This document shows, piece after piece, positions 3,721-39,390 of a stretch of DNA of 64,000 nt. This DNA is from an uncultured Bacilli bacterium. GTDB lineage: Bacteria > Bacillota_I > Bacilli_A > RFN20 > CAG-826. A model generated the notes under the pieces. The model had not been told where the DNA came from, made no database searches, and saw nothing but the letters and a program-made list of their open reading frames with translations. The translations under genes and the position numbers were made by a program. Location: the NCBI GenBank assembly GCA_934162685.1, contig CAKPJO010000001.1, positions 30,602-94,601 on the forward strand, read 5' to 3'. The stretch's first letter is position 1. Every line of letters begins with the position of its first letter.

Positions 3721-6700
3721 TTGACCCCTGTTGGGGTGTGTTATAGAAAGGTGGAGATTTTAATGTATTGTAGTTTACATAATCATACAATGTATTCAAA
3801 TTTAAAATTATTAGATAGTATCAATAGAATTCCAGATATGATAAATAAAGCTATAGAATACGGTTTTAACGGTTTAGCTATCACGGACCATGAAATATTA
3901 TCAGGCCATGTTGAAGCTTTAGAATATGCTGATAAGATTAAAAAAGATCATCCTGATTTTAAAGTAATACTAGGGAATGAAATTTATTTAATTAAAGAAA
4001 AAGAATATAAACAACCAGAAACAAAATTCTGGCATTTCTTATTAATTGCAAAAGATTTAACAGGATACATGCAAATTCGTAAATTAAGTTCTAAAGCCTG
4101 GGATCGTATGTATGTATCTAAAGGACAAAAAAGAACTCCCACTTTTTATGAAGACTTTGAAGCAATAATTGGTAATGATAAAGGTCATATTATAATGTCA
4201 ACAGCCTGTTTAGGTTCATATTTAAACGATTGTTTTATTAGACACGATTTAGAAGAAATTAAATTTTATATAAATTGGATGGTTAAAACTGTTGGAAAAG
4301 AAAATGCTTTTTTAGAAATACAAGATAGTGACTCTATTGAACAACAAAATTATAATAAATTTATTTTAAAATTAGGAAAACAATTAAACTTAAAAGTAAT
4401 TGTAACTCAAGATGCTCATTATCTGAATAAAGAAGATTTACAAATTGAAAAAACCTTTTTAAACAGTAAACAAGAAGGAGATCGAGAGGTTGACGCTTTC
4501 TATAAATATACTTATATGAAACCAGAAAGTGAAATCAAACAAATTCTTTCTTATCTTCCTGTAGAAGATGTTCAACAAGCTATTGATAATACTCAAATAA
4601 TTTATCGAATGATACAACCATATGATATAAGAAAAGATACAATTATTCCACAAAGAAAACTTCCTTCCTTTCAATTAAAACATTTATTAAAAGAATGGTA
4701 TGAACAAGAAGAAAACATAAAAGCATTTGCTGAAAGTTTGTGGGACCAAGATAGATTTTTATTGCATTTAATTGAGCAAGGAATAGAAGAAAAAAATTTT
4801 AAAGTAACTAAATTAGAAGCAGATAGAATTAATACTGAACTTGGTGTTTTAAAATATATTACTGAAAGAGTGCATCAACCTATGAGTGCGTACTTAAATT
4901 TGGTGCAAGAAATTATTAATTTAATGTGGGAAGTATCGTTTATCGGCGTCAGCAGAGGATGTTTTACAGAAGATGCCCAAATTTTAATGGGAGACGGAAG
5001 TTATAAATCAATTAAAGATGTACAAGAAGGAGACTTAGTTTATACTCATTTAGGAAGAATAAAGAAAGTTTTACAAACTCATCAATATAACGTAAATGAA
5101 CGATTATATACAATCAAAGTGCGCGGACGTCCTGCATTTACTTGTACTAATAATCATCAAATATTTGGTAGCCATCAAGGTTCTTGTAAAGCACCTGGTT
5201 CTAAAAATGTTTATTGTTCAGGAAAGTGTAAAAGGTTCAGTACTTGTCCTTATGCCACTGGAGAAGCAATTCAAGCTCATTGGATTGAGGCACAAAATTT
5301 AAAAAAGGGAGATTTTGTTACAACTCCAAAATTTAATTTTGCAAATCCTACAAGTAATTTAATAGATTTAATGAAATATATCCCTGAATCTAGTGCCGTA
5401 GGAGAAAACCAATTTTATTATAAGCGTAAAGATGATCGTTATTGTTCTGGAATAGTGAAAAAATTTATAGCCAATCGCTATTCACAATGGACACCTGGTC
5501 TTGCTCGTCTTGTTGGTTATTTTATTGGAAATGGATGGACAAGAAAAAAAGATGATAAGTCAAATTCAATAATTCAGTTTGGCCTTGCCTTTCATAGTGA
5601 GGCAACAGAAAAAATTAATGATTGTGTTAATTTAATTGAAAACGAATTACATTTATCTTATAAAATCAGACCTTCTTCTCGTCGAAAGGTAGTACAAATT
5701 ATAGTAGGAAACAAGCCTTGGGCTAACTTTTTTGCGGCAGAGTGCGGAATAGGAAGTCATAATAAAAAAATTCCTTATAAAATCTTCACAGATTTAACAT
5801 TAGCTAAAGAATGCATGAGAGGGTTAATTCTCACTGATGGTAGTACAGATTTAAAAAGACGTCGTTTTAAATATAGCACAATTTCTCCTATGCTTCAAAA
5901 ACAAGTTTTTTATTTGCTTAATTTATTAAAATATAATTCTTTTATGAATGAATTTGATAAGAGGCAAGAAAATTGGGAGCCAGAAAGAACAAATTGTTTA
6001 TCAGGAACTCAACTTTTGAAATTTTGCGAAGAATTTAATTTAGGAACACCTATGACTTCACAACTTGCATATACTCGTCAAGATTTTGAAGAAGATGAAC
6101 AATATTATTATAATAAAATTGAAAATATAGAGACAAAAAACTTTCAAGGAATAGTTTACGATTTAACAGTAGAAGATGACACTTCTTATATTGTGAATGG
6201 GTGTGCTGTACATAATAGCGCAATGTCATTCTTAATTAATTATTTAATTGGAATTGTGCAAGTTAATCCAATTCCTTACGATGTTCCTTATTGGAGATTT
6301 ATGAATACTGCAAGTATTCCAACGTTAACGCCAGAAGAAATTAAAGCAGGTAAAAAACTTTCAATAGCGGCAACGATGCCTGATGTTGATATAGATATTA
6401 GTCCTACAAAAGCAAATGAGGTTATGGATATTATGAGACAACATTATGGAGAAGATAATATTCTTAATACACTAACTTATAAAAAAGAATCTTTAAAAGC
6501 TGCTTTAAATAGTTGCGGTAGAGGATTAGGATTATTACCCGAAGAAACTCATTATTTATCAAGTTTGGTTCCTACTTCTAGAGGTCACGTTTATTCTTTA
6601 CAAGAATGTGAAGAAGGTGACGAAGAAAAGGGCTTTGAAGCTCATCCAGAGGTAATTCAAGCTATTCAAAAATATCCTGGTTTATATGAGGCCGTTAAAA

Positions 6701-7479
6701 AGATAGAAGGTTTAATTTCAGGTTCTGGAATTCACGCTTCTGCCGTTTACTTCTTTCCTGATGGTTATATTAATTGTTGTTCTATGATGCGAGCCCCAAA
6801 CGGTACCCGTATAACAGGATTTGATTATAGAGCGGTTGATGCTTGTTCGGGATTAAAAATGGACTTTTTATATACCGATTGTCAAACTAAATTAATGAAA
6901 ACAATGGACTTATTATTAAAATATAATCAAATTAAATGGCAAGGTTCTTTAAGGGCTACTTATAATAAATATTTACATCCAGATGTATTAGATTATAATA
7001 ATCCTGAAATGTGGAAAAGAATGCAAGAAGGACAAATATCTAATTTGTTCCAATTTGATAGTTTACAAGGGGCCATTTGTATTAAAAGAACTCGTCCTGA
7101 GAATGTAAAACAATTAGGAGCAGCAAATGCTGTTATGAGATTAATGAGTTCTGATGGTGGAGAAACTCCATTAGATAGATATGTACGTTTCAGAAATGAT
7201 ATAAGCGAATGGTATAAAGAAATGGATGAATATGGTTTAACAAAACACGAGCAGTCTCTTCTTGAAAGATATTTATTACCTAAGTTTGGCAATTCTGTAG
7301 AACAAGAAGATATGATGCAAATTGTTCAAGATCCTGAAATTTCTAACTTTACATTAGGAGAAAGCAACAAGTTTCGTAAGGTGGTGTCCAAAAAGAAACT
7401 TAAAGAAATTGAAAAATATAAGAAATTATTCTTTGAAAAAAATAAAGATCCAGAGGTTTCAGAAGAACTAGATTTTTAG
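3721..7479 (+). CDS. dnaE: DNA polymerase III alpha (DnaE-like) N-terminal cistron containing an intein; PHP domain plus palm/fingers
   Basis: PHP motifs (HNHTMYS, ITDHE). Catalytic MPDVDIDIS aligns with DnaE MPDFDVDF. LKMDFL, NLFQFDS and MMQIVQ blocks match DnaE. Ends at the position where DnaE continues with ...KFAGYGFNKSHS. Confidence 0.8.
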   Translation: MTPVGVCYRKVEILMYCSLHNHTMYSNLKLLDSINRIPDMINKAIEYGFNGLAITDHEILSGHVEALEYADKIKKDHPDFKVILGNEIYLIKEKEYKQPETKFWHFLLIAKDLTGYMQIRKLSSKAWDRMYVSKGQKRTPTFYEDFEAIIGNDKGHIIMSTACLGSYLNDCFIRHDLEEIKFYINWMVKTVGKENAFLEIQDSDSIEQQNYNKFILKLGKQLNLKVIVTQDAHYLNKEDLQIEKTFLNSKQEGDREVDAFYKYTYMKPESEIKQILSYLPVEDVQQAIDNTQIIYRMIQPYDIRKDTIIPQRKLPSFQLKHLLKEWYEQEENIKAFAESLWDQDRFLLHLIEQGIEEKNFKVTKLEADRINTELGVLKYITERVHQPMSAYLNLVQEIINLMWEVSFIGVSRGCFTEDAQILMGDGSYKSIKDVQEGDLVYTHLGRIKKVLQTHQYNVNERLYTIKVRGRPAFTCTNNHQIFGSHQGSCKAPGSKNVYCSGKCKRFSTCPYATGEAIQAHWIEAQNLKKGDFVTTPKFNFANPTSNLIDLMKYIPESSAVGENQFYYKRKDDRYCSGIVKKFIANRYSQWTPGLARLVGYFIGNGWTRKKDDKSNSIIQFGLAFHSEATEKINDCVNLIENELHLSYKIRPSSRRKVVQIIVGNKPWANFFAAECGIGSHNKKIPYKIFTDLTLAKECMRGLILTDGSTDLKRRRFKYSTISPMLQKQVFYLLNLLKYNSFMNEFDKRQENWEPERTNCLSGTQLLKFCEEFNLGTPMTSQLAYTRQDFEEDEQYYYNKIENIETKNFQGIVYDLTVEDDTSYIVNGCAVHNSAMSFLINYLIGIVQVNPIPYDVPYWRFMNTASIPTLTPEEIKAGKKLSIAATMPDVDIDISPTKANEVMDIMRQHYGEDNILNTLTYKKESLKAALNSCGRGLGLLPEETHYLSSLVPTSRGHVYSLQECEEGDEEKGFEAHPEVIQAIQKYPGLYEAVKKIEGLISGSGIHASAVYFFPDGYINCCSMMRAPNGTRITGFDYRAVDACSGLKMDFLYTDCQTKLMKTMDLLLKYNQIKWQGSLRATYNKYLHPDVLDYNNPEMWKRMQEGQISNLFQFDSLQGAICIKRTRPENVKQLGAANAVMRLMSSDGGETPLDRYVRFRNDISEWYKEMDEYGLTKHEQSLLERYLLPKFGNSVEQEDMMQIVQDPEISNFTLGESNKFRKVVSKKKLKEIEKYKKLFFEKNKDPEVSEELDF
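4960..6216 (+). mobile_element. intein (419 aa) with a LAGLIDADG homing endonuclease domain, inserted in the GRGS palm motif of DnaE
   Basis: Starts CFTEDAQILMGDGS (block A) and ends VHN followed by S (+1). LAGLIDADG blocks LVGYFIGNGW and GLILTDGS. Flanking VSRG|...|SAMSFLINYLIG matches DnaE GRGS-AAGSLVAY. Confidence 0.8.
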
Positions 7480-12025: not shown

Positions 12026-13031
12026 AATGAATTTTGAAAATAGAGAATATAATAAACCTTCGCAAATTGAATATGAAGGTACTTTAACTAAAAATAGGAA
12101 TCAAAGGCCTACTTGTGACCAAAAGTTTTTAGACTGGTGTGTGGCTAATGCAGAACGTTTTAGCTCTTATTATACTATGGCTAAAGCATTAGGACTTGAT
12201 GGCAGGGCTTTTCAACGTTTAATAGAAGATTATAACATTACATTAACATTTGATAGTAAAGCTGCTCATACTCCTAAATTATATCAAGATTATGACTGGT
12301 TATATAATCAAATTGTTACTTTAAATAAGTCTCGTAAGCAAGTAGCTGAAGAAAATGGCTGGACAGTTAGAGTTTTAGAAAAATGGATGGGCATTTTAGG
12401 AATTAATAGAAGAACATACCAAGATTTAAAACAAATGTCTGATAAGCAAAGAGATTTAATTAAATTCTCATTATTAGGTGACGGATGTGTTTCTGATACA
12501 GGATTTTTTATTGTGTCTCATAGTGAAAAGCAAAAAGATTATTTATATTGGAAATATGAAATGTTGAAAGATCTTTGCTCGCATGAACCGACACGATATG
12601 ATGAGAGTGTTAAAATAATTAACGGAAAAGAAGTTAATTGCGAACCATATTATAGATTTAATACTAGAAAATTAAAGGAATTGTTTAATCTTAGAGAAAT
12701 GCCAATAGAACAAATTGTTAATGATTTAGATGAATTTGGTTTGTCAATTTGGATGTTGGACGATGCTAGCCGAGATGCTTCTTGGAAGTTATGTATAGCC
12801 GCTTATCCTGAAGAAACTAGAACATTTATTGTAAATTATTTTAAGGATAAAGGTTTTTTATCTGCTAAAGTAAGGCTATATGATACAAGATATGTGGAAT
12901 TTAATGCTGACGACAGTAGAAAAATAGATGCTATAATTTTGCGTAACATTCCTCACAATTTAGACATTATACAATATAAAATTATAAATAATAGTAGAAT
13001 TAAATCACCAAGGAGGGGAAATAATGGCTAG
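12018..13031 (+). CDS. free-standing LAGLIDADG homing endonuclease with an N-terminal DNA-binding region
   Basis: Two LAGLIDADG-type motifs (LLGDGCVSD, WMLDDASRD). Located exactly at the junction that splits dnaE; overlaps both neighbours. Confidence 0.7.
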   Translation: MNRMNFENREYNKPSQIEYEGTLTKNRNQRPTCDQKFLDWCVANAERFSSYYTMAKALGLDGRAFQRLIEDYNITLTFDSKAAHTPKLYQDYDWLYNQIVTLNKSRKQVAEENGWTVRVLEKWMGILGINRRTYQDLKQMSDKQRDLIKFSLLGDGCVSDTGFFIVSHSEKQKDYLYWKYEMLKDLCSHEPTRYDESVKIINGKEVNCEPYYRFNTRKLKELFNLREMPIEQIVNDLDEFGLSIWMLDDASRDASWKLCIAAYPEETRTFIVNYFKDKGFLSAKVRLYDTRYVEFNADDSRKIDAIILRNIPHNLDIIQYKIINNSRIKSPRRGNNG

Positions 13032-14583
13032 GCGTCTTTTCCTAGATTATGTCTGGGGAAAATGCATTCAACCACAAGTAGGATACGCCTTTTCTTTGCC
13101 GCACGATATTAGTTATTCTATAGAAGCCGTCCAAGAAGCTAATTTAGCAACAAGATATAACCCTCTTTTTTGGGAATGTGCTTGCCTTTGTATCAACGCA
13201 GGAAATACGGAAACAGGATTTGAAGAAGACGATGATGAAGAGCAAGACGAGGAAGAAAAGAAAACTAAATCAGGAGCACCATCATATGGTAAAATTTCAA
13301 AAGCTTTAACCGATTGTAGGCTTCACGGTGTAAATATTGAATTTCCAAACATTAATACATCTCAAGCAGATTTCGTTCCTGATATTGAAAATAATAGTAT
13401 TTTATATAGTTTAAAGACTGTTACAAATGTGAGCGATGATTTATATTCACAAATCATTCAGAATAGACCTTATTCATCAATAGAAGATTTCTGTTCTAAA
13501 GTATCTGTTACACCAGCACAAATGTCCAGTTTAATTAAAGCTGGTTGCTTCAATTCTTTATATAAGATGTCAAGACGAGCAATTCTCTATGCTTATTTCA
13601 ATTATTTAGCAAATCAAGAAATAATCCTTAAAAAAACATTGAACTTATCTCATTTAAAGAAAGCTTTGTCTCTTGGTGAGAAATTTCCAGGTTATGAAGA
13701 TAAAATTCAATTATTATATTTTAAAGTATACATTGATAAAAATCAAAAATTAGATCCTAGTAAAGAGGCATTCTCACTTAATGCTTTATTAAATAAGAAA
13801 TGTTATAAACTCACGGAAGAATCTTGCATCAGCTTTTTCAATATGAAAGTTGCGCCTTCATTAGATTTAAGAAAAGGTGATTATGATTATTTAGATGGAC
13901 ACACAATATTATTAAAAGCATCAAGCTTTACAAAATTCTATGATGCTCAAATGAAAGAATTAACTGATTATCTAAATTCTGAACAAGGTAAATTAGTATT
14001 TCAAAAAATGGAAAAAGATGCTTTTATAAAAGATCTTATTGAAAAATACGCAGAAGGAACCGAAGCTGACTGGGATATGCAAACAATGAATTTTTATCAA
14101 TCTGAACACGCACTTGCTAGAATGTCCGAAATAAAGTATAACATTAAGAATTTTAATAAATTACCAGAAACGCCTATAACACGTAAGTATATAGGTAAAG
14201 ACGGAGAAGAAAAAGAGACAGCTGAAACTTGTGCAATATGTGGTACAGTTGTAGATGCTAATAATGTTAAACACGTGGTAAGTTTATTAACTAAGTATGG
14301 AGTGGTTAATGTTAAATTATTCTCACAAGCATATTCTAATTTTAGTCAAAAGATAAGTATTGTTGAAGATGCCGCCAAAAAGAAGAAAACAGTTTTAGAC
14401 GACTCTTGGTTTAAAAGAGGAACGAAATTAATTATTCACGGGTTCAGAAGAGAAAATATGTTTGTTGCTAAAACTGAATATGTTAATAAAGTTCCTAAAA
14501 TGGTAGGATTAATAGAAAGTTTAGATACAAACGGAAATGCTTCTATTAGATACACAAGAAAGAAGAAAATTAGTCAAGAATAA
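13024..14583 (+). CDS. dnaE: DNA polymerase III alpha (DnaE-like) C-terminal cistron; fingers/HhH/beta-binding region
   Basis: [32 protein letters not shown] aligns with DnaE [46 protein letters not shown] aligns with GLKILPPDINSG. Continues the alignment where 3721..7479 stops. Confidence 0.75.
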   Translation: [519 protein letters not shown]

Positions 14584-18045: not shown

Positions 18046-19296
18046 ATGGCAGAAGAAGAATACAAGCGTGCATTAGCACATGTCGAAAAAGTAGTAGATA
18101 TTCAACCTATTGAAGGAGCAGATCGAATTGTTCTTGCAACTATTTTAGGTTGGAAAGTAGTAGTTAAAAAAGATGAATTTAAGGTAGGAGATTTAGCAGT
18201 TTATGTGGAAATTGACTCTGTTTTACCTGCCGATGATGTGAGATTTGAGTTTTTAAAGAGCAAAGATTATCGCATCAAAACAATGAAACTAAACAAATTC
18301 AAAGTGTTTAGTCAAGGAATTGCGTTCCACGTTAACGAATTTCCAGAAATTAAAAATCCTGCTGAAGGAATGGATGTGACAGAGGTTCTAAAGATTACGA
18401 AATATGAACCATATGAACCACCAGTTAAATCTCTTTCTTACAAAGAAGCTAAAAATAAGAGAATGTTTGCTCGACATCCTAAATTTTTCCAAAGTAAATT
18501 TGGTAAATTTGTCAGAAAACATCCTACTTTATTAAAGATATTTGAACATTTCTGGGGCGGCAAAAATATTAAACCTAAGAAATTCCCTGATTGGATTAGA
18601 AGAACTGACGAAATCAGATGTGAAAATATTGCAAATATTTGTTCTTATAAAAAACCGCTTTTAGTAACGTGTAAAGTTGATGGTTCAAGTACAACTTTTG
18701 CATTAAGATTTAAGAATGAAAAACATAAGAAATATGAAATATTTGTATGTTCTCGTAATGTGCGTATGTTAACCGAAACACAATCTTGTTACTTTGAAAC
18801 AAACGTATATTATGAAATGTTTAAAAAATATGATGTTGAAGAATTCTTAAAGGCAACAGCAAATCTGTTACAAGCAGACTTTGTTATTTTACAAGGTGAA
18901 ACATATGGCGATAAATTACAAGGAAATCCTTATAAAATGGATTATGTTGATTTTAGAGGTTATAACTTAATTTATGGTTATATGGAAGGAACAAAGCAAT
19001 TTAAAGCAAATGTTAATAACCCACTATATCATAGAGTAGGAGACACTATTCAAACACGCATCAATAGTATTAAAGCTAAAGAAATGTGTGAAATTCATGA
19101 TATTAAATGGGTTCCAATTTTAGAAGAGAACTTCATTCTTCCTGATACAATGGAAGAATTAAAACAACAAGCTACTGGAGCATCAGTTATTAATCCTAAA
19201 GTATTAAGAGAAGGACTTGTTTATCGTTCAACGACTGATCCAGAGTTCTCATTTAAAAATGTTTCAAGAGAATATTTACTAAGCAAGGGGGAATAA
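18046..19296 (+). CDS. ATP-dependent RNA ligase-like protein (nucleotidyltransferase KxDG family)
   Basis: Motif I CKVDGSS, motif IV-like REGLVYR, C-terminal Lys motif; N-terminal nucleic-acid-binding-like domain. Confidence 0.55.
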   Translation: MAEEEYKRALAHVEKVVDIQPIEGADRIVLATILGWKVVVKKDEFKVGDLAVYVEIDSVLPADDVRFEFLKSKDYRIKTMKLNKFKVFSQGIAFHVNEFPEIKNPAEGMDVTEVLKITKYEPYEPPVKSLSYKEAKNKRMFARHPKFFQSKFGKFVRKHPTLLKIFEHFWGGKNIKPKKFPDWIRRTDEIRCENIANICSYKKPLLVTCKVDGSSTTFALRFKNEKHKKYEIFVCSRNVRMLTETQSCYFETNVYYEMFKKYDVEEFLKATANLLQADFVILQGETYGDKLQGNPYKMDYVDFRGYNLIYGYMEGTKQFKANVNNPLYHRVGDTIQTRINSIKAKEMCEIHDIKWVPILEENFILPDTMEELKQQATGASVINPKVLREGLVYRSTTDPEFSFKNVSREYLLSKGE

Positions 19297-25822: not shown

Positions 25823-27187
25823 ATGCTAACAAAAGAAAAATTAGAAGAAATCGTAAGTAGACCTGAATATGATTTTCTAAGAACTAATCCTCGATTAAAG
25901 GATAAAATCTTATTCTTGACTGTCGGAGGCAGCTATGCTTACGGAACCAATGTTGAAGGTTCAGATATCGACATTAGAGGAGTTGCGATGAATAGCATCG
26001 AAGATATTTTAGGTGGTACAACATTTGAACAATTTCAAAATGATGAAACCGATACAGTTATTTATTCAGTCAATAAGTTTATTAAATTGGTAACTGATTG
26101 TAATCCTAATGTTATTGAAATGTTATTTTGTGAACCTGCTCAATACATTTGGGTATCTCCATTAGGACAATTATTATTAGATAACAAACATCTATTTTTA
26201 TCTCAAAAAGCTTATTATACCTTTGGTGGATATGCTAGAGCTCAATTAAATAGATTAGAAAATGCTTTATGTAGAGGCAATTACTTCACACAGGCACAAA
26301 AAGAAGAGCACATTGCAAGAAGTGTAGAAAATTCTATTGATAGCTTTAGTGAAAAATATTCAGCAATGATACAAGGCAAAGGAAGCATCAAACTTCATAC
26401 TGATAAAGTAGATGAAAATGGCGATAGGATCATCACAACTGATATGACAATGAAAGATGTTCCTTTAAGAGAAGTTCGTTCTATGTTAGAAGAAATGACT
26501 AATATTGTAAGAGATTATGACAAGTCTGGTGGCTGGAGAAATACTAAGAAAGATATTCCGCACTTAAACAAGCATATTATGCATCTAGTAAGACTATATT
26601 ACATGGGTATTGAAATTCTAGAAACTGGTGCTTTACATACTTATAGAAGTAAAGAACATCAATTATTAATGAGCATCAGAAGTGGATTATTCTTAGACGA
26701 AAAGAATAATTTAAAACCTGAATTTTACACCGTATTAAATGATTTAGAAAATAAGTTAAAAACAGCTTTAGATAATAGTAAATTACCTAAAAAAGCTAGA
26801 CGAGATGAAATCAAACAATTACAAATTAAAATTAATTTATTAATGATTAAAATGGGTGCCTATAAAGAATATATCTTGACTGAGTTTGATTTAGATGAAA
26901 AAGAAAAAGTTGTTAATAATAAAAACTATAAAATTACCTTATCTGAAATTTTAAGTATGAACCCAAGCTATACTGCAATTCATTGTGATACCGAAGAAAA
27001 AGCCAATAAATTATTAACAATTTTAAATAAATTAGGACAAAAATGGATTAGTGGAGAATCATATTTAATAAATAACAACTGGAGGTCATACAAAACCCAA
27101 ACTTGTTATGGCTTAGATGGATCATATGGAATTTCTAAATGGTACGATGATGTTTACGAATTCGATGATATTGATTTAAATAATTAA
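25823..27187 (+). CDS. Pol-beta-superfamily nucleotidyltransferase fused to a C-terminal AIHCDT...YEFDDIDL domain (family member 4)
   Basis: NTase signature GGSYAYGTNVEGSDIDI (GS...DxD). C-terminal 90 aa AIHCDTEEKANKLL...LGQKW...TCY...VYEFDDIDL. Confidence 0.6.
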   Translation: MLTKEKLEEIVSRPEYDFLRTNPRLKDKILFLTVGGSYAYGTNVEGSDIDIRGVAMNSIEDILGGTTFEQFQNDETDTVIYSVNKFIKLVTDCNPNVIEMLFCEPAQYIWVSPLGQLLLDNKHLFLSQKAYYTFGGYARAQLNRLENALCRGNYFTQAQKEEHIARSVENSIDSFSEKYSAMIQGKGSIKLHTDKVDENGDRIITTDMTMKDVPLREVRSMLEEMTNIVRDYDKSGGWRNTKKDIPHLNKHIMHLVRLYYMGIEILETGALHTYRSKEHQLLMSIRSGLFLDEKNNLKPEFYTVLNDLENKLKTALDNSKLPKKARRDEIKQLQIKINLLMIKMGAYKEYILTEFDLDEKEKVVNNKNYKITLSEILSMNPSYTAIHCDTEEKANKLLTILNKLGQKWISGESYLINNNWRSYKTQTCYGLDGSYGISKWYDDVYEFDDIDLNN

Positions 27188-27606: not shown

Positions 27607-29073
27607 ATGGAAAGAAAAGATATTGAACAACTTATAAAATACACTTTACCAACTGAGGTATTCACAATCTTTAACACTTTAGAAAATAAAGGTTTTGAAA
27701 CTTATTTAGTGGGCGGAAGTGTGAGAGACATGTGCTTCAATGCTATTTTTCACGACAATAAAGACGCTCGTTATCGTAACGTTCACGATTTTGATTTTGC
27801 AACCGCTGCTCTTCCTGAAGAAATTATAGAAGTTTTTAAAGATTATGAAGTAATTCCAACTGGGTTAAAACACGGCACTGTTACAGTCAGGATCAACCAT
27901 CAAAATTTTGAAATAACAACATTCAGAATAGATGGTAAATATGACGATTTTCGTCATCCTAACTCTGTATCATTCACCAGATCTATAGAAGAAGATTTGA
28001 GCCGTCGCGACTTCACAATGAACGCTATTGCTTATAGTCCAACAAGAGGTTTAGTCGATCCTTTTAATGGTATTGGAGATCTTGATAATATAAGATGTGT
28101 TGGAGACCCAACCCAAAGATTTCGAGAAGATCCTTTAAGAATTCTTAGAGCATCACGCTTTGCTCTTCAATTTATGATACCTATTGAAATCAATACATAT
28201 GAAGCTGCTCAACAAAACGTGAATTTAATTCATCATTTATCAAAAGAAAGAGTAACTGATGAATTCAAAAAAATGTTAAATATCGATCCTTTAAACATTA
28301 CTTATTCTATATTTAGAACTTATTATGGCTTTATTTTAGAAGAATACTTTCCAACATTAAAAGAATACGCAAATTTTCGTCCTACTTTGAATAAAGAACC
28401 TCAAATTTGGAATAAATATCTTCGTATACAAGACCATCAAGTTAATGTGTTTTTAAGAGTGAGATATTTATATCCAATGTTTGATTTTGCTCTTTATTTG
28501 GCTGCTTTATGTCACGACTTAGGAAAACAAAATGCAGAAACAGTAACTCTAACAGACGACAAAATTAAAATATATCATTATTATAGACATCCAGAAGAAA
28601 GTCTTAAAATTTTTGAACAAGAAGTATTGCCTCGTTTATCATTATCAAAAAGAGAAATTGACGAAGCCAGAACATTAATTTTATATCATGATATGCGTAT
28701 TGCCCCTACTAAAAAATCAGTAAAAAAAGCTTTACAAAAAATGTCCCCATTAATGTTATCTTTATTATTTAAATTGCAAGAAGCTGACCTTGATGACCAT
28801 GAATTTGCTAATTTATTAAGAAAGAAAAATACATATCGTGATTTATATGTGACACAATACATCGCCTCAGAAATTCATAAAGATATTCAAGAATGCTTCA
28901 CCATAAAACAACTTAAAATCAATGGTAGAGACCTTCTAAATTTAGGAATAGAACCAGGCCCCAAAATTGGTAAAATTCTTAAAGAATTATTAAAGAAAGT
29001 TATTGATGAAGAGATTCAAAATGATCCTAGGTCTCTCTTACAATATGCACAACATTTAGCCACAAAAGAATGA
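27607..29073 (+). CDS. cca: CCA-adding enzyme / tRNA nucleotidyltransferase (class II, with HD domain)
   Basis: Head motifs LVGGSVRDMCF and RRDFTMNAIAY. HD-like LCHDLGK in the C-terminal half. Confidence 0.7.
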   Translation: MERKDIEQLIKYTLPTEVFTIFNTLENKGFETYLVGGSVRDMCFNAIFHDNKDARYRNVHDFDFATAALPEEIIEVFKDYEVIPTGLKHGTVTVRINHQNFEITTFRIDGKYDDFRHPNSVSFTRSIEEDLSRRDFTMNAIAYSPTRGLVDPFNGIGDLDNIRCVGDPTQRFREDPLRILRASRFALQFMIPIEINTYEAAQQNVNLIHHLSKERVTDEFKKMLNIDPLNITYSIFRTYYGFILEEYFPTLKEYANFRPTLNKEPQIWNKYLRIQDHQVNVFLRVRYLYPMFDFALYLAALCHDLGKQNAETVTLTDDKIKIYHYYRHPEESLKIFEQEVLPRLSLSKREIDEARTLILYHDMRIAPTKKSVKKALQKMSPLMLSLLFKLQEADLDDHEFANLLRKKNTYRDLYVTQYIASEIHKDIQECFTIKQLKINGRDLLNLGIEPGPKIGKILKELLKKVIDEEIQNDPRSLLQYAQHLATKE

Positions 29074-29076
29074 AAA

Positions 29077-29107
29077 AGTTAAGATTAATATCTTGACTTT
29101 TTTTTAT
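29077..29107 (+). terminator. intrinsic terminator sharing its 3' arm with the P9 -35
   Basis: AAGTTAAGATtaatATCTTGACTT plus T8. Confidence 0.6.
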
Positions 29108-29135
29108 ATTTCTCTATAATAAATAGTGTAAGAAA
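29094..29135 (+). promoter_or_regulatory. sigma-A type promoter P9 (TTGACT-15-TATAAT-AAATAGTGTAAG)
   Basis: Family consensus. Confidence 0.6.
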
Positions 29136-30705: not shown

Positions 30706-30727
30706 AAAAACATTGACTTTTTTTTAT
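30696..30727 (+). terminator. intrinsic terminator sharing its 3' arm with the P10 -35
   Basis: GTCAATGtaaaaaaaCATTGAC plus T9. Confidence 0.6.
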
Positions 30728-30755
30728 ATTTAATTATAATAAATAATGTAAGGAG
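30714..30755 (+). promoter_or_regulatory. sigma-A type promoter P10 (TTGACT-15-TATAAT-AAATAATGTAAGGAGG)
   Basis: Family consensus. Confidence 0.6.
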
Positions 30756-33135: not shown

Positions 33136-33165
33136 CCCCCTCCCCAGGGGTTTTTCTTTTTTTAT
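33136..33165 (+). terminator. intrinsic terminator (CCCCTccccAGGGG plus T-run)
   Basis: GC stem followed by TTTTTCTTTTTTT directly after the sigma gene stop. Confidence 0.6.
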
Positions 33166-33550
33166 CCTTCTTTTTACCTCTTTTTACCTTCTGGGGGAAA
33201 CGCGCAGTGAGCCATTGGGTATTGAACTTGTGCAATAGCCATTGGCGAACGATGAGCGCGTGGGGGCAAACGCGTGCCACTCCGAGATGACACACTCTGC
33301 AAGTCTTGAGAGAAAAAATGAAAATTTTTATACTCACACACTTGCGAGAGCTTTTCAACGAAAAGTCGAGGCAAAATTGCTTTACTTTCTTTAAGGGGGA
33401 ATATAAACCGAAGGTTTATATGAAATTCTTTTTACTCTTTTTAATCTTTTCTTTATTTATTTCTTTTCTTTTTAATCAACTTTTTTCTTTTCGTTTTTCT
33501 TTCTTTTCGGTTTTTTCTCATTTTTCTTGGGGGACGGTTCTTTAAAAGCA

Positions 33551-33625
33551 TGCGTGCGTGACGCACGTGTACGTGTATGCACGTATGTGTACATGTACAT
33601 ACATACACACATCACATACACAAAA
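33551..33625. repeat. 75-bp alternating purine-pyrimidine tract ((CA/TG)n and CACGTG-rich, Z-DNA-prone)
   Basis: gtgcgtgacgcacgtgtacgtgtatgcacgtatgtgtacatgtacatacatacacacatcacatacaca. Confidence 0.7.
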
Positions 33626-33642
33626 ACTAATGTGCCATTGTC

Positions 33643-33790
33643 CGCCAGCTTCAAAGCTAACTTCAAAGCTAACTTCAAAGCTTGTTTCAGAACTCTTTAT
33701 AACTCTTTAATGACCACTTACTCAAATTTTTTGATACACTTACTTCAATGTAACTTCAATGAAGCTTTGAACTAACTTCAATGTAACTTA
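33643..33790. repeat. tandem and dispersed short repeats (CTTCAAAGCTAA x3; ACTTCAATG(T/A)A x3)
   Basis: Direct reading of the sequence. Confidence 0.65.
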
Positions 33791-34027
33791 GTAATTTATA
33801 ATTTAACTTAAGTCAGGTTAAAAGTAAAAATATTAAGTTATAATCTTCCTTGAGTTCGCTTCGCTTATTTAATGGCGTAAGTGCTTATGCCCTTCCGCCA
33901 ATCTTCCATTTAAAAGTCTTGCTTCCGCAATCCTTTCAAATCCGCAAAGTGTATTTATTCTTTTTTTGTTTTCTTTTCTGTACTTTGAGTTTATGTAATA
34001 CCCAAAACTACTTAAAATGAAATATTC

Positions 34028-34332
34028 ACTATTTTTTCTCCATTTAATTCAAAGAATCTCAAGTAAAACAAGTTATAACAAGTATTTATTCGTTTTTATT
34101 GAGTTTGTTTTTTTATTCTTGATTTAATTCAAGAAAAAAATAGAAGGTTCTCGTGTACGCGTGTATACATGTATGCGTAACGTGTAAAACTCTTATTTTT
34201 TAGATTTATTAAATACTCTTTAATTTATTTTCCATTTAATTCAAGAAATTAGGTCTAAAGTGGTTTAAAACTAGTATTTATTAGTCTGGAGTGTGTTTGG
34301 TTAGTTTTTATCCATTCAATTCAAGAAAAAAA
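34028..34332. repeat. iteron-like TTCCATTTAATTCAAGAA boxes (4 copies here, a fifth at 36548)
   Basis: Copies at ~34028, 34115 (palindromic TTCTTGAtttaatTCAAGAA), 34229 and 34300. Confidence 0.55.
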
Positions 34333-34803
34333 TTAGTTAAAATTGATTCTGGAGTGTTTTGAGAGTTATACAGGGGCTTTGATTTATATGATTTAAGCGT
34401 TACACTTTGTAACGGTTTGGGTGTAACAGTTTGGTATGTTTTGTTTCACACTTTCGAGGATTACTCGTTTGTTCATTTGGGTATTTAGAGAAAATTTTTA
34501 AGTAGGATTTAAGCAAGATATTAAGTAGGATTTAAGTAGGATGATTGGTATGGTAAAATAAAGGATAAGTGGGAGAGAGGTGGGTCAAAGTGGGATAAAA
34601 TTAGGTGAAAGTGGGAGGTCACGTGTGCGGGCGCGTGCGCGATTTTCTAGGTGTGATATTTGTCACACTTTTGGCTGGGTCAAAGAAGAGAGAAGTCTTC
34701 TTTTTCTCCGATTCTAAGCCACTATTCTACAATTTTTTAGAATGATTCTAAAAATCAACAACTGTTAAAATATCAACAAAATAATTAAAAATGTTGAAAA
34801 AAG

Positions 34804-34854
34804 ATATCGAACACTTTGTTCGGAAACTCAGAAATATCGAACACTTTGTTCGAT
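34804..34854. promoter_or_regulatory. pair of palindromic operator-like sites ATCGAACACTTTGTTCGAT, 31 bp apart, upstream of P12
   Basis: Perfect 8-3-8 palindrome (second copy) and a near-perfect first copy. They lie 45-95 bp upstream of the -35. Confidence 0.55.
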
Positions 34855-34898
34855 TACTCAAAAGACGGTTGCACCAACTTAAAAAAACTCCAAAAAAA

Positions 34899-34940
34899 CT
34901 TGACATTTGATAAAAATCAATTATACTAAATAATGTAAAG
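34899..34940 (+). promoter_or_regulatory. sigma-A type promoter P12 (TTGACA-17-TATACT-AAATAATGTAAAGGAG)
   Basis: Family consensus. Confidence 0.55.
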
Positions 34941-34952
34941 GAGTGTGATAAT

Positions 34953-35279: not shown

Positions 35280-36125
35280 ATGGGATACGATAAACTATTT
35301 GATGACTGGGATAAAATTAAACATCGAACAGATCATTTTCTAACGTATAATAAAGTAGAGAAAAAATATATAGAAGCATATAAAAAGGAAACGCAGGCAT
35401 GTGACGCACATGTGCCTACACATACACACGTAAATATAAATAAGGATAATATATCCGATATCCAAGAAAATCAGAAGTTCTTAAGTGAGCCATTTGTAAG
35501 ATTCAGAGGCATCGCGAAGAATGACGATGATAAGGGCTGGGTATATGGATATTACTATAAGCAATTATATAGTATAGATGAGAACGGCGCACCTATATAT
35601 AGACATTACATTGTGATGGACTGTGAGAATAAGATGACAGCGTGGATGAAAGGACTGGTAAAAGAACCGTTAAGAAGTCCAGTCTTTGTTGAAGTCATCG
35701 GAGAGACAGTCACGCAATGGACGAAGTGTACAGACATTGAAGGTAATGATATATACGAAGGTGATATCGTCGAGGTGTATGAGTTTGTTAATAATGGCGA
35801 AGGAGAGAATCATAGGCCTGTAAAAAAGAAAGTGTTTGATGGAGTAGCTGCTGTGGGTGAGATAGGTAGAGGCGAAAAGAACGGAGGACCTTGCTTGTTT
35901 GTTGGATGCATTAACGATGCAGCTAGACTGGTCGCTAAGAACTTTAGAGAAGCTGTATATGGATATAAGATCGTGGGTAACTTCTATGAGAATCCAGAGT
36001 GGTATAAAGAAAGAAAAACAGTCATAGATATAGCTGATGAAACGGACGATCGTGACGATGATGATGGCTTTGATGACATCTGGGATAGGGTTGATCCTGA
36101 AGACTGTGGAGATGATGAAGCATAA
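35280..36125 (+). CDS. hypothetical protein with a poly-Asp C-terminal tail
   Basis: GC-richer ORF. Contains a Pu-Py alternating tract in codons ~35393-35425. C-terminus DDRDDDDGFDD. Confidence 0.45.
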   Translation: MGYDKLFDDWDKIKHRTDHFLTYNKVEKKYIEAYKKETQACDAHVPTHTHVNINKDNISDIQENQKFLSEPFVRFRGIAKNDDDKGWVYGYYYKQLYSIDENGAPIYRHYIVMDCENKMTAWMKGLVKEPLRSPVFVEVIGETVTQWTKCTDIEGNDIYEGDIVEVYEFVNNGEGENHRPVKKKVFDGVAAVGEIGRGEKNGGPCLFVGCINDAARLVAKNFREAVYGYKIVGNFYENPEWYKERKTVIDIADETDDRDDDDGFDDIWDRVDPEDCGDDEA

Positions 36126-36343
36126 TGTATTGGTATGATGATGATAACTTCTGGGAGGACAAGAAACCTCCTAAGACATATGATTACCTGCATGATGATA
36201 TAGAGGATCCTGCGGAATATGATGATTGGCTAAGATATATGGCAAGAGGAATCGGATTAAGGTATCCAGATGATGATGATGCGTATAAAGATCATGATGA
36301 ATACGGTGATATAATAATGCCATGGAATGATGATGACGATTAG
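36125..36343 (+). CDS. small highly acidic D/E/Y/W-rich protein (72 aa), DNA-mimic candidate
   Basis: ATGA overlap. About 40% Asp/Glu with interspersed aromatic residues. Confidence 0.45.
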   Translation: MYWYDDDNFWEDKKPPKTYDYLHDDIEDPAEYDDWLRYMARGIGLRYPDDDDAYKDHDEYGDIIMPWNDDDD

Positions 36344-36766
36344 AGAGCGTAAGCCCTCTTTTTGTTTTGTTCTGTGGAATGTTGCAATAGAGTATGATGA
36401 TTCATTTTGCAATTAGATAAATTAAGAATCCAGATGAACTAAATGATCTAGATGCATCTGATGAAGCATCAAGAAAAAGATCTGGCCCTCTGGTAAAAAA
36501 GATCCCCGCCACGCTATAAAAACGTCGCCCCATCAAACATTCAATTTATTTTCCATTTATTTCAAAGAATCTCAAACAGAATCCTTCTCAGGTATAATTT
36601 AAAGGAGCTCACCGTTCTTGTCTGCTATTTAAAGAACTACCTTTAAATAAATCACGTAAAATTAAAAATAACTATATATAAACTCTTAGAAATTCTCAGA
36701 ATCGTTAATTTAATTACTTAATAATTCAAAACAATTAAAAAAAATAAAAAAAGTTTTTAAAACCTA

Positions 36767-36810
36767 TTGACTTATTTTTATATTCCTGTATACTTATTAG
36801 TGTAAAGGGG
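36767..36810 (+). promoter_or_regulatory. sigma-A type promoter P13 (TTGACT-16-TATACT-TATTAGTGTAAAGGGGG) inside the ORF-free island
   Basis: Family consensus; followed by an RBS and a 30-codon ORF. Confidence 0.5.
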
Positions 36811-36828
36811 GAAAGGAAATGAACCTCC

Positions 36829-36924
36829 AAAGTACCCCTTGCAGTTCTTTGAAAAATCAATATCGGTCCATTATCATTTTGGATAAAAAAGAATTCATCA
36901 CAGTGACGACGTCATAAAAAGAAC
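36829..36924 (+). CDS. 30-aa ORF (MNLQSTPCSSLKNQYRSIIILDKKEFITVTTS) with a strong RBS
   Basis: GGGGGAAAGGAAATG. The only credible ORF in 36.35-38.66 kb; may be a leader peptide. Confidence 0.3.
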
Positions 36925-38664
36925 TTAACCCGTCCACTCGTGAAAGATAGTCTGACGATATAAAGTGGGAAAATTGTGGTGGGGATAAAGTAGCGCTCTT
37001 GTCTGGAAATGACATACCTCCATAATTATGCAGTTCGGTATACTCTGGAGCTCTGTGCGAAGCGAGGCGTCGGTACCGTGATGAACTCTTTTAAAAGCTA
37101 GTACGGAACTTAGCCAAATCTCGCTGATACTATTAAAATAACATTTATCATGTTTTCTCCAACCTATATTTAAATGTATCTTATCGGTTAATTTATCATC
37201 ACAGGGAAATTGATGATGCAATGCAATACGCTATTAATTTTAACCAACATAGCACAACTTAGTGAATCCCCAATTCACTTCCCGCACTACTTTCCAAAAG
37301 ATTCATTCAAACCATCCCCTTAACAGGGATGCTACGAGGGCTCTGTTTAGAAGATCCTATAGGAACAGTTATTTATATTAATTTATAAACACCTGAACTT
37401 ATTATGGTCCCTATTTAAATGTGCAAATTTATTAACCCCTTCTTCAGAGCTTTCATAGGATCTTTGTTAGATCCAATTTTAGTTTTCATAAATAGATAAA
37501 GAGGACGCCTGCCTTGAACACACAGGTTTCCTTGAAGAGCAGAGATGGAATCAATCACCACCTTCCTATCGTGTTATAGTTACAGTTATAGTTGTTATGA
37601 TTTCATATTGATCAGTACCCTTTCTATCTCTGCTCCTTAAGGCAACTTGTTTACCTTAGCTCACACCGTATTCACCACTTTTCCTCCTGGTAGTACGGTG
37701 TTTTCGTCGTTATGCTTTTATCTTCGTTTAATAGATTCTTTTTTTATTGACACTGTGTCAGTAATATTCTGTGTCCTTATGTATCCAGATGATTACAAAA
37801 TGCAAGCACCTGATATTCTCTTATTTCTTACTTCTATCTATTTGCTCCAGTAAGTACAATTTTTTAATACTTTGCGGAGCAAAAATTGCACTTCAAATTC
37901 TTTTTTCCTCTGTTCAAGTGCAAAAAAATATCCGCCTCTCGTTGAAAAAAGGTCTGGCCTTATAGCTAATATATGAGCGATTAAGGTTAAAAAAGAGGTT
38001 TATCGCTAATATTTGAGCAGTTTCTCGTCATCGCATAGTATCCCCTGCGGGAGCGCCCTTTAGATCATTTTAATATTACTTTCTGGATCGTTTCTGGTTG
38101 TTATCTACCTCTTTTCTGGATGATGCATCAATGACATAATTCTGGTATAATTATGTAATAATTATATGCTCCGTAACTATATCATTGTAATGATACACTT
38201 TACACTATTCTACTCCATATGCTACACTACCTCCTCTCGTCCATTTCTTTTTTCGCTTATAGACATACACCAGATTTTTCGTGCCTATAAGGCCGAAAAA
38301 AATAGCGGCGCCGCAAAAAAAGTGGCCCTCCAGTAAAAAAAGTGGGGCGCCCGTGTAAAAAGTGCCCGCTCGCATAGTTTCCCCTGGCTGCGTAGTTTTA
38401 CGTCGGTTCATTTCCCTTCGACGGTTATTGCTTGCTTGGGGCTAGTTATAGGATCGCTTGGATTACGGATTTACTTTGCTTGAATAAAAATCAACTACTT
38501 AGACGGCGAGGAATAAAGGAGTGAACCTTTACTTTCGGCCCACTCCAGTCATGCAGCAAAATAAATATACTGCACAGACAATGAAACTTAACATAAGTCC
38601 ATTCATTGTTCACTCACCTCCTTTCCAATATATATTGTAACACATAAACTGTGTAATACAATCA

Positions 38665-39390
38665 TTAGTTTTTACCCACAACTGATAATCTTACCGTTGG
38701 AAAGATAGGACACATCATATCAAAATAATTTGCTGTGTATTCAGAAGATTCTTTTTCTTCATCAGTTAGTCCTATAGCAACTCTTTTTAACATAGAATCT
38801 GGTTTAAAGTCATCTGTGAGAACATCTATATCCACAGGAGTGCCATAGATTTTATTAATTGCATCATAGATTTTATCTTCTCCAAATCGTTCTAAATGTT
38901 CGTAATTAATAGCTAAGTTGCCAAATACTTGTAGCTGAGACACCCAGTTTTCTCTTGCTATAATTTCTTCTAATGGAAGTAAGACGTTGCTAATTGGAAA
39001 TATAGGAAACACTTTCTTACGCTTATCAATACGAGTTAAATCAATTAATAATTGTTGTGCTTCTAAAAGAGCTGATATAATAGATGAATCTTTTAACAAA
39101 GAATTATGACATCCTTCTAATCGATGACTATCTTTTCTTTTTAATGCTCTTATATAAGATCTGGTAATTTGATTTAAATCTCCTTGAATACCTAAAGAAT
39201 GTACACGTTCTAATAAAGCTCCGACGTGAAGGTCTCCATGACCTTGTAAAAAATCATATTCAACTGCAACAAGTTGTTGATCCCAAGTCATGGTATTAAC
39301 ATAATCTTCTGTGATTTCATCATTTAATTTAATGGAGTTATAGACTCTGACAATGTGTGTAATAATTTTGTATCTTAATTCGTTTTTCAT
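38665..39390 (-). CDS. hypothetical protein
   Basis: RBS GGAGGAA. Last gene of the minus block. Confidence 0.55.
   Translation of the reverse strand: MKNELRYKIITHIVRVYNSIKLNDEITEDYVNTMTWDQQLVAVEYDFLQGHGDLHVGALLERVHSLGIQGDLNQITRSYIRALKRKDSHRLEGCHNSLLKDSSIISALLEAQQLLIDLTRIDKRKKVFPIFPISNVLLPLEEIIARENWVSQLQVFGNLAINYEHLERFGEDKIYDAINKIYGTPVDIDVLTDDFKPDSMLKRVAIGLTDEEKESSEYTANYFDMMCPIFPTVRLSVVGKN

Follow-up and report, generated by a model that had tools for sequence, protein, structure and literature searches.

A Clade-Specific Gene-Free Gap in a Human-Gut Phage as a Candidate Locus of Convergent RNA Genes

A Conserved Non-coding Locus Between Convergent Gene Blocks

The gene-free gap considered here occupies positions 36344–38664 of a 64-kb stretch of contig CAKPJO010000001.1 (the whole stretch is referred to below as the window), whose source is a low-GC (~30%) phage of ~140 kb from human-gut metagenomes. 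The gap sits between a plus-strand gene block ending at 36343 and a minus-strand block ending at 38665, and is a real conserved non-coding locus. The reading preferred here, to which a probability of about one half is assigned, is that it is a clade-specific, selectively maintained non-coding locus of convergent RNA genes rather than a site of DNA replication or packaging. A promoter near its left end, P13, would launch a plus-strand transcript without a conserved protein product that runs for ~0.7–0.9 kb to a weak terminator (T1) and a strong one (T2); this candidate RNA-1 would itself be the functional product, serving as a regulator, a decoy, or a scaffold in the way suggested for the abundant early long non-coding RNAs (lncRNAs) of Kayvirus. 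The right-hand unit would be a type I toxin-like or small membrane-peptide gene held under a translational lock, which an antisense transcript from a further promoter, P_mid (38013–38041), could control, and arrays of A-runs and GC-rich boxes would act as phased upstream A-tract modules boosting or insulating promoters. On the best reading, the locus combines a new candidate phage lncRNA with a type I toxin-like peptide gene and an array motif unique to the region. The original prediction had missed both the minus-strand peptide gene and the second plus-strand promoter at the right end.

The flanking proteins were used to retrieve contigs from many gut samples, and these were grouped into nine distinct lineages; a protein-based look-up for further lineages yielded only one already in the set, and the protein adjoining the gap occurs in 52 blocks of the collection. 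The original prediction had looked to conservation in related phages, and a gene-free gap of 2.1–2.4 kb is found at the same syntenic position, with P13, in all nine lineages. Invariant 18–19-mers scanned through viral, metagenome, and genome collections gave genuine matches in the same clade only, the rest being chance, and in the nearest cultured relative, TR-TP2, the convergent junction measures merely 58 nt with no comparable gap; the gap is therefore a clade-specific feature. Megablast and blastn against 50,697 deposited phage records recovered no DNA-level relative of the window, only a 40-nt promoter match, and the replication proteins of the phage share ~30–33% identity with proteins of Brevibacillus phage Sundance and Thomasclavelia phages.

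The gap had been described as free of open reading frames (ORFs), which holds in that no ORF of at least 100 aa is present, but not for a 25-codon minus-strand ORF conserved in all lineages, the single conserved ORF with expression signals in the gap. The six frames contain 41–62 stops each per 773 codons, and a six-frame scan against PHROGs detected no remnants of protein families in the gap.

Aligned columns of the gap are 84–94% identical between lineages, compared with 71–86% at four-fold degenerate sites of four flanking genes. Since divergence among the flanking genes is uneven, a sign of mosaicism, invariant runs were chosen as a second test. Seven runs of at least 30 nt (60, 53, 49, 39, 35, 31, and 31 nt) occur in the gap, where column permutation predicts 0.16, and the longest runs in each of the four flanking genes reach maxima of 14–35 nt. 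The invariant blocks of the gap interleave with replaced, indel-rich segments.

The Left Unit: P13 and Candidate RNA-1

P13 (36736–36794, plus strand) consists of an A-rich UP element, a −35 TTGACT (36767–36772), a 16-nt spacer, and a −10 TATACT (36789–36794). The consensus promoter placed at 36767 in the original prediction is thus borne out, and it is invariant in nine of nine lineages. The longest invariant run of the gap, 60 nt at 36759–36818, takes in P13, its UP element, and ~18 bases at the start of the transcript, and invariance of P13 extends over the first ~120 nt of the predicted transcript. Real genes at 29093, 30712, and 34900 have promoters of the same layout, namely UP element, TTGAC(T/A), TATA(A/C)T, AWATARTGTAA leader, ribosome-binding site (RBS), and start codon, and the UP/−35 part of P13 matches early-gene promoters of Staphylococcus Herelleviridae in the 40-nt blastn match. 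These elements mark P13 as a predicted strong promoter of the host sigma-A early type with an A-rich UP element. The near-identical promoters (29093–29131, 30712–30730, 34900–34927, and 36767–36805) form a family with the initial transcribed sequence AWATARTGTAA, and the shared leader suggests a common regulatory leader of a temporal gene class.

The short ORF reported downstream of P13 exists, at 32 rather than 30 codons (36819–36917), but is not conserved as a protein: its ATG is TTG in four of nine lineages, and a 1-nt indel places the ORF following P13 in two different frames, with lengths of 22, 32, and 37 codons across lineages. The P13 transcript is most likely a non-coding RNA predicted to extend from 36801 to ~37706, because P13 is invariant, the ORF is not maintained, helices and compensatory changes in an insert domain are present, and a canonical plus-strand terminator, T2, follows. 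The long structured RNA of the original prediction is thus supported in reduced form: the transcript would end near 37706 rather than continue for more than 1.7 kb, and its body mostly lacks excess folding. The sequence described as hairpin-rich for more than 1.7 kb does show excess folding at 37580–37779, 37820–37939, and 38460–38619, but nowhere else in a 120-nt sliding scan.

Candidate RNA-1 (36801–37706, plus strand) would measure ~0.9 kb, or ~0.69 kb if it ended at T1. Its 5′ hairpin holds a pseudo-RBS and the non-conserved ORF, and is followed by an invariant 24-bp long-range helix (36887–36911 with 37068–37092) that closes a variable, modular insert domain (36921–37063) of ~30–155 nt across lineages. 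This domain is the sole place of real lineage divergence (~65% identity). Its consensus fold contains five double-compensated base pairs, compared with zero or one in six slid controls, and has a covariation score of 0.164 against 0.02–0.06 in slid controls, a value reached by one of 500 shuffles; four further C-G/U-G or A-U/G-U changes keep pairing valid on the plus strand only. Downstream lie T1, a weak terminator formed by a hairpin at 37458–37474 with A-T to G-C swaps and a U-rich tail to 37488, and a ~30-bp hairpin with a variable loop (37522–37550 with 37622–37650). T2 (37663–37706) has a 14-bp stem (37663–37701), a 10-nt C/U-rich loop, and a U4 tract that is U8 in three lineages; its folding energy is −16.6 kcal/mol (z −4.1), one-sided C-G to U-G changes keep pairing on the plus strand only, and the region includes a 31-nt invariant run (37674–37704). 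It is the long helices, together with the insert domain and the terminators, that carry the structural case for RNA-1. Covariation over the whole RNA-1 and its strand calls were weak or mixed, divergence being too small, and no antisense targets were found elsewhere in the 64-kb window.

The invariant runs and the insert domain also bear on a reading of the gap as decayed coding DNA, in which one or more gene remnants have left P13 orphaned and the apparent conservation stems from recent divergence or recombination. P13, its leader, RBS, and start codon are built exactly as real gene starts, an ORF of 22–37 codons follows P13 in one frame in seven of nine lineages, the very uneven divergence of neighboring genes is a sign of mosaic exchange, and the closest cultured relative lacks such a gap. 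However, stops fall every 13–19 codons in six frames without similarity to phage protein families, and gap size is kept in all lineages despite frequent indels. The pseudogene reading fails, and is considered very unlikely, because seven invariant runs of 30–60 nt, interleaved with replaced segments, exceed those of adjacent functional genes, which is unexpected for neutral remnants, and because of the compensatory changes in the insert domain.

Upstream of P13, a box (ATTTATTTTCCATTTATTTCAAAGAATCTCAA) and an invariant CAGGTATAATTTAAAGG occupy 36544–36598 on the plus strand, with a −10-like TATAAT at 36593–36598; this is possibly a regulated or alternative promoter. The shared box (TTCCATTTATTTCAAAGAA, 36551–36569) was confirmed, although with three copies in the window instead of the five previously counted: at ≤3 mismatches it recurs at 34038 and 34230, in another gene-free gap, against 0.21 copies expected by chance. 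Separately, the RNA-1 core (CCCTTAACAGGGATGCTACGAGG, 37317–37339) shares 23 identical nt with a Tannerella sp. metagenome-assembled genome (JAITPL010000194.1; L031 4372–4394), beyond which the two are dissimilar; the match is probably fortuitous, although it could be of a spacer-like or fragment type.

The Right Unit: a Minus-Strand Peptide Gene

The promoter of the peptide gene (38634–38661, minus strand) comes directly after the stop of a 241-aa gene and comprises a −35 TTGTAT, a 16-nt spacer, and a TG-extended −10 TGTTACAAT, invariant in nine of nine lineages. The predicted mRNA (38495–38625, minus strand) is compact and highly structured, and its ORF (38606→38529) encodes a hydrophobic 25-aa peptide with a basic C-terminus, MNGLMLSFIVCA(V/A)YLFCCMTGVGRK, preceded by a strong RBS (GGAGGTGA). 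ORF, RBS, and promoter are conserved in all nine lineages. Folding of the ~130-nt minus-strand RNA yields −48 kcal/mol against −29 for shuffles (z −5.2), with z ranging from −5.4 to −7.8 across the nine lineages. The consensus fold is closed by an 18-bp helix holding the Shine-Dalgarno (SD) region, in which the SD (GGAGGUGA, 38621→38614) pairs with a CCUCGCC stretch further downstream. Changes at all variable paired positions go through wobble intermediates: standard pairs fill 409 of 414 pair cells (98.8%) on the minus strand, 78 of them G-U, versus 334 of 414 (80.7%) on the plus strand. Substitutions in the ORF are nearly all synonymous (there is one V/A change) and preserve pairing, and nucleotide invariance over 38513–38561 includes synonymous sites. 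The exact peptide has never been annotated, and no Pfam match to it was obtained at E ≤ 10. By analogy with known systems, it is inferred to be encoded by a type I toxin-like or small membrane-peptide gene whose translation is locked.

The peptide gene faces P_mid (TTGAGC-17-TAGTAT, 38013–38041), a plus-strand promoter element conserved in nine of nine lineages and convergent with it, which is a candidate promoter of an antisense or regulatory RNA. P_mid falls within a segment (37961–38041) that also carries two direct 18-mers on the plus strand, TATAGCTAATATATGAGC (37961–37978) and TATCGCTAATATTTGAGC (38001–38018); both had been pointed out previously, both proved to be present and conserved, and they are possible operator sites. 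A 17-mer, TCGCATAGTWTCCCCTG, overlaps the P_mid −10 and recurs at 38370–38386. This second position lies in the most conserved non-coding block of the right half (38356–38430), which comprises a 51–53-nt invariant run, a second TCGCATAGTTTCCCCTG copy, and a small hairpin, and is not structured overall (z +1.5 on the plus strand).

It is possible, and proposed here tentatively, that the right half (~38013–38661) constitutes a type I toxin-antitoxin module with the rest of the gap as regulatory padding. A 25-aa membrane toxin with a locked mRNA would then be controlled by the convergent antisense RNA from P_mid, in the service of phage or prophage maintenance, lysis timing, or abortive-infection-type competition. 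Consistent with this are the small hydrophobic peptide with its basic C-terminus and own strong promoter, an extremely stable mRNA in which pairing of the SD with a downstream anti-SD is kept through wobble changes, the conserved convergent P_mid, and the invariance at 38513–38561, which, including synonymous sites as it does, fits constraint on both strands. Such systems are common on Firmicutes prophages, with bsrG/SR4 and yonT/SR6 on SPbeta and those of Clostridioides difficile phiCD630-1 among the examples (PMC6562991, PMC7699646, PMC5848175). On the other hand, the antitoxin RNA is not delimited: ~450 nt separate P_mid from the structured core of the peptide mRNA at its 3′ end, no terminator was found for P_mid, and no conserved plus-strand promoter is located closer to the peptide gene. 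Opposite the 3′ region, the plus strand lacks structure (z +1.5), and no outlier was seen among trans-pairing sites. The putative toxin has no match among Pfam toxin families, and its 25 aa fall at the short end of the range. A toxin-antitoxin module would account well for the right end of the gap but would leave RNA-1 unexplained. Trans pairing of the T2 loop (37674–37704) with the peptide RBS was considered and rejected, as it was not an outlier among 1,996 windows.

The A-Run/GC-Box Arrays

The phased arrays of A-runs and GC-rich boxes with ~20-bp periodicity described in the original prediction are present. The pattern of a plus-strand A5+ followed by a GC-rich 10-mer occurs eight times in the 64 kb, in each case within one of three clusters of the gap, and spacing within the arrays is 18–23 bp, approximately two helical turns, with a mean of ~20.3 bp. 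Array 1 (36474–36535) has three units of 21–23 bp period with boxes C-rich on the plus strand, array 2 (37922–37960) has two units of the same period, and array 3 (38296–38373) has four units, of which boxes 1–2 drift and boxes 3–4 are invariant. Across lineages, A-runs and spacing persist while the GC boxes drift; in array 3 the A-runs are kept and the three periods sum to 60–62 bp in nine of nine lineages. Array 1 is absent, having been replaced, in three lineages (L004, L013, and L014), and an extra cluster of two A-run/C-rich-box units, within a ~48-nt insertion between 36734 and 36735, is found in the lineage represented by L008, L003, and L024, directly continuous with the UP element of P13. 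Array units thus come and go as modules.

Array 2 is situated 55–95 bp upstream of P_mid and array 1 is 60–120 bp upstream of the invariant TATAAT at 36593. Because three of the four arrays (clusters 1 and 2 and the extra L008 cluster) lie 45–120 bp upstream of plus-strand promoter-like elements, a position not clearly shared by cluster 3, the arrays may most simply be phased upstream A-tract modules that boost or insulate promoters. Phased A-tracts upstream of Bacillus phage promoters, for example SP82 Alu156, act as curved-DNA or UP-element activators. The arrays of the gap resemble these in having A-tracts phased at approximately two helical turns and in lying 45–120 bp upstream of plus-strand promoter-like elements. 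They differ in their period of ~20 bp, with 12–15-bp GC-rich spacers, rather than ~10.5 bp, in a predicted curvature that is moderate, and in the lack of a convincing promoter downstream of cluster 3.

Several other roles were examined for the arrays. The signature of intrinsically bent DNA that they had been taken to represent is weak: under the Bolshoy-Trifonov wedge model, curvature within this AT-rich window is at the 99th percentile for cluster 3 and at the 91st–93rd for clusters 1–2 (cluster 1 at the 93rd), and ~30 sites elsewhere are more curved, so that the arrays do not stand out as strongly bent DNA. As hairpins or terminators they were rejected since folding is no better than that of shuffles on either strand (z −1.0 to +1.1). 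Roles as lambda-like dyad iterons or as Rho-loading (C>G) sites were likewise rejected on inspection, the units lacking consistent dyad symmetry and only cluster 1 being C-rich.

Weight of the Evidence for Convergent RNA Genes

Several observations weigh against the reading of the gap as a locus of convergent RNA genes. Four-fold identity ranges from 58 to 93% between neighboring genes, and mosaic recombination makes the neutral reference rate uncertain. The lineages are close (84–96% identity in the gap), giving covariation low power, and over the whole of RNA-1 double changes affect just two of 145 predicted pairs. Single-sequence-fold tests of RNA-1 gave no consistent signal or strand preference, and most of RNA-1 is without excess local folding, none being detected in 36800–37500 by the 120-nt sliding scan. 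P13 with its RBS and start codon resembles an ordinary gene start, and an ancestral gene may have been lost. For the P_mid transcript no terminator was found. The promoter-module reading of the arrays is purely positional, and cluster 3 is followed by only a weak −10-like element rather than a convincing promoter.

A more ambitious version, which we regard as rather unlikely, is that the P13 transcript and the arrays represent a large regulatory RNA locus of a new phage class, wired by convergent transcription to the locked toxin-like peptide gene to form an RNA-only switch for a membrane peptide during infection. The early RNA, present throughout a widespread clade of human-gut phages, would be modular and ~0.9 kb long, or up to ~1.8 kb with read-through, and its conserved unpaired blocks and C-rich/A-run platforms would bind a host or phage factor.

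Origin, Packaging and Other DNA-Element Readings

Alternatively, the gap could function at the DNA level, as a cis element whose phased A-tracts and GC boxes would bend the DNA and attract a protein; it might then serve as an origin or terminus of replication, a pac/cos site, a centromere, or a barrier to transcription or replication where the gene blocks converge. We consider this unlikely. In its favor, the arrays are confined to the gap, and, as would suit a structural property of the DNA, the phasing of their A-runs is kept while boxes drift and they are not RNA hairpins. Predicted curvature at cluster 3 is at the 99th percentile, a very AT-rich stretch with only 14% GC (36700–36799) lies beside cluster 1 and a promoter, and GC skew changes sign nearby. 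Yet the skew switch merely tracks transcription direction, clusters 1–2 have ordinary curvature, ~30 sites elsewhere are more curved, and the loss of cluster 1 in three lineages and gain of a cluster in L008 indicate that no single array is essential. The arrays cover just ~180 of 2321 bp and cannot account for the invariant blocks elsewhere.

The earlier proposal of an origin or terminus, packaging site, or centromere-like site fails because of the evidence on iterons, DnaA boxes, neighboring genes, and contig ends. No identical iterons were found by TRF in the gap, only A-rich tracts, whereas many occur in a second gap at 33136–34952; the GC boxes are unlike one another as well as variable between lineages. 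DnaA boxes number 29 across the window against 23 expected, which is at chance level, with none clustered in the flagged gap. Pfam and PHROGs searches of the neighboring proteins returned no match. Genes for a terminase, a partition protein, or an initiator do not adjoin the gap, and the ORFs scanned did not include an identifiable terminase. Contigs of 136–143 kb carry the flagged gap internally, contig ends do not cluster there, and short contigs break mostly in the second gap.

The second gene-free gap (33136–34952, 1.8–1.9 kb) is likewise kept in relatives. It is dense in T-rich tracts and in tandem repeats with periods of 11, 12, 21, 30, and 40 bp, and has alternating purine-pyrimidine runs prone to form Z-DNA (33553–33626, 34150–34185, and 34622–34641); many independent metagenome contigs end within it. 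An origin, a terminus, or a hypervariable repeat region is more plausibly placed here than in the flagged gap.

Relation to Known Systems

To our knowledge, few systems of phage-encoded lncRNAs have been described and none has an established function. The closest functional analog of RNA-1 would be the abundant lncRNA1/lncRNA2 (lnc001/lnc002) of Kayvirus (Staphylococcus phage K/vB_SauM-515A1). These RNAs measure 0.5–1.15 kb, arise from gene-free regions, and make up 2–9% of phage reads; one has its own typical early promoter and the function of neither is known (PMC7698491, PMC9241854). The two cases share a large virulent-type Firmicutes phage, a gene-free region of at least 0.5 kb, and an own early-type sigma-A promoter, and the UP/−35 part of P13 matches early promoters of Staphylococcus Herelleviridae. 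In contrast, no sequence similarity extends past the promoter (blastn against the 50,697 phage records gave the 40-nt match only), the Kayvirus RNAs adjoin tRNA genes whereas the 64-kb window has no tRNA, expression here is predicted from sequence, and the present locus additionally has arrays and a convergent peptide gene.

The right unit resembles the type I systems fst/RNAII, txpA/RatA, bsrG/SR4, yonT/SR6, and C. difficile CD0977.1/RCd11 (PMC6562991, PMC7699646) in its small hydrophobic peptide with an own promoter, its compact and very stable mRNA with sequestered SD, the convergent promoter on the other strand, and its phage or prophage location. Points of difference are that the putative toxin stands outside known toxin families, that the candidate antisense RNA is not delimited, and that its promoter is unusually far away.

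All 4227 Rfam models were scanned, as the original prediction had suggested for part of the gap, and no family matched at gathering score in the 64 kb; permissive filters returned only sub-threshold matches at chance level. Large RNAs such as GOLLD, ROOL, OLE, raiA, and HEARO share with RNA-1 a size class of 0.6–0.9 kb and long-range helices with variable insert domains, and GOLLD and ROOL also occur in Firmicutes phages. Unlike them, RNA-1 has no covariance-model match even at permissive thresholds, its covariation support is much weaker, and its locus is limited to one narrow phage clade.

The locus thus adds a conserved lncRNA candidate in a phage clade that recurs across many human-gut metagenomes. 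Its landmarks are a pair of convergent promoters, both invariant, a defined terminator, and a variable domain in which compensatory changes occur. The peptide mRNA is among the clearest predicted RBS-locking folds that could be expected from sequence alone, and small genes like that of the 25-aa peptide are systematically overlooked by gene callers. Should the arrays turn out to act as promoter modules or insulators, they could be put to use in the engineering of low-GC hosts.

Other Features of the Gap and Its Neighborhood

Between RNA-1 and P_mid, a poorly conserved, indel-rich spacer (37715–37830) contains a palindrome, TGACACTGTGTCA, which some lineages have lost by deletion. It is followed on the plus strand by two adjacent conserved hairpins (37838–37917; TTTGCTCC...GGAGCAAA and TTGCACTT...AAGTGCAA), with z = −5.0 on the plus versus −2.5 on the minus strand and U-G wobbles favoring the plus strand.

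At the left edge of the gap, the upstream plus-strand operon ends in an intrinsic terminator (36344–36368) composed of a short stem, a GNRA-type loop (GTAA/GAAA/GCAA), and TTTTTGTTTTG; a terminator-like site is kept in at least seven lineages (fold z = −2.5). The plus-strand block encodes DNA polymerase, a RecD-like helicase, RNA ligase, CCA-adding enzymes, and a sigma factor, with three small genes last. The final gene before the gap (36125–36343, plus strand) encodes a very acidic 72-aa protein with D runs and a DDDD end (MYWYDDDNFWEDKK...); it has no family match and could be a DNA mimic or anti-restriction-type protein.

Genes at 18046–19296, 25823–27187, and 27607–29073 form an RNA-repair-like set of RNA ligase, RlaP-type nucleotidyltransferase, and CCA-adding enzyme, despite which ARAGORN detected no tRNA genes in the 64-kb window; a tmRNA search was likewise empty. 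Group I and group II intron models matched nowhere in the window. The DNA polymerase is apparently split into ORFs of 1252 aa (3721–7479) and 519 aa (13024–14583) lying 5.5 kb apart with several ORFs between them, both of which match DNA polymerase PHROGs, and the polymerase of TR-TP2 is similarly split around an HNH endonuclease.

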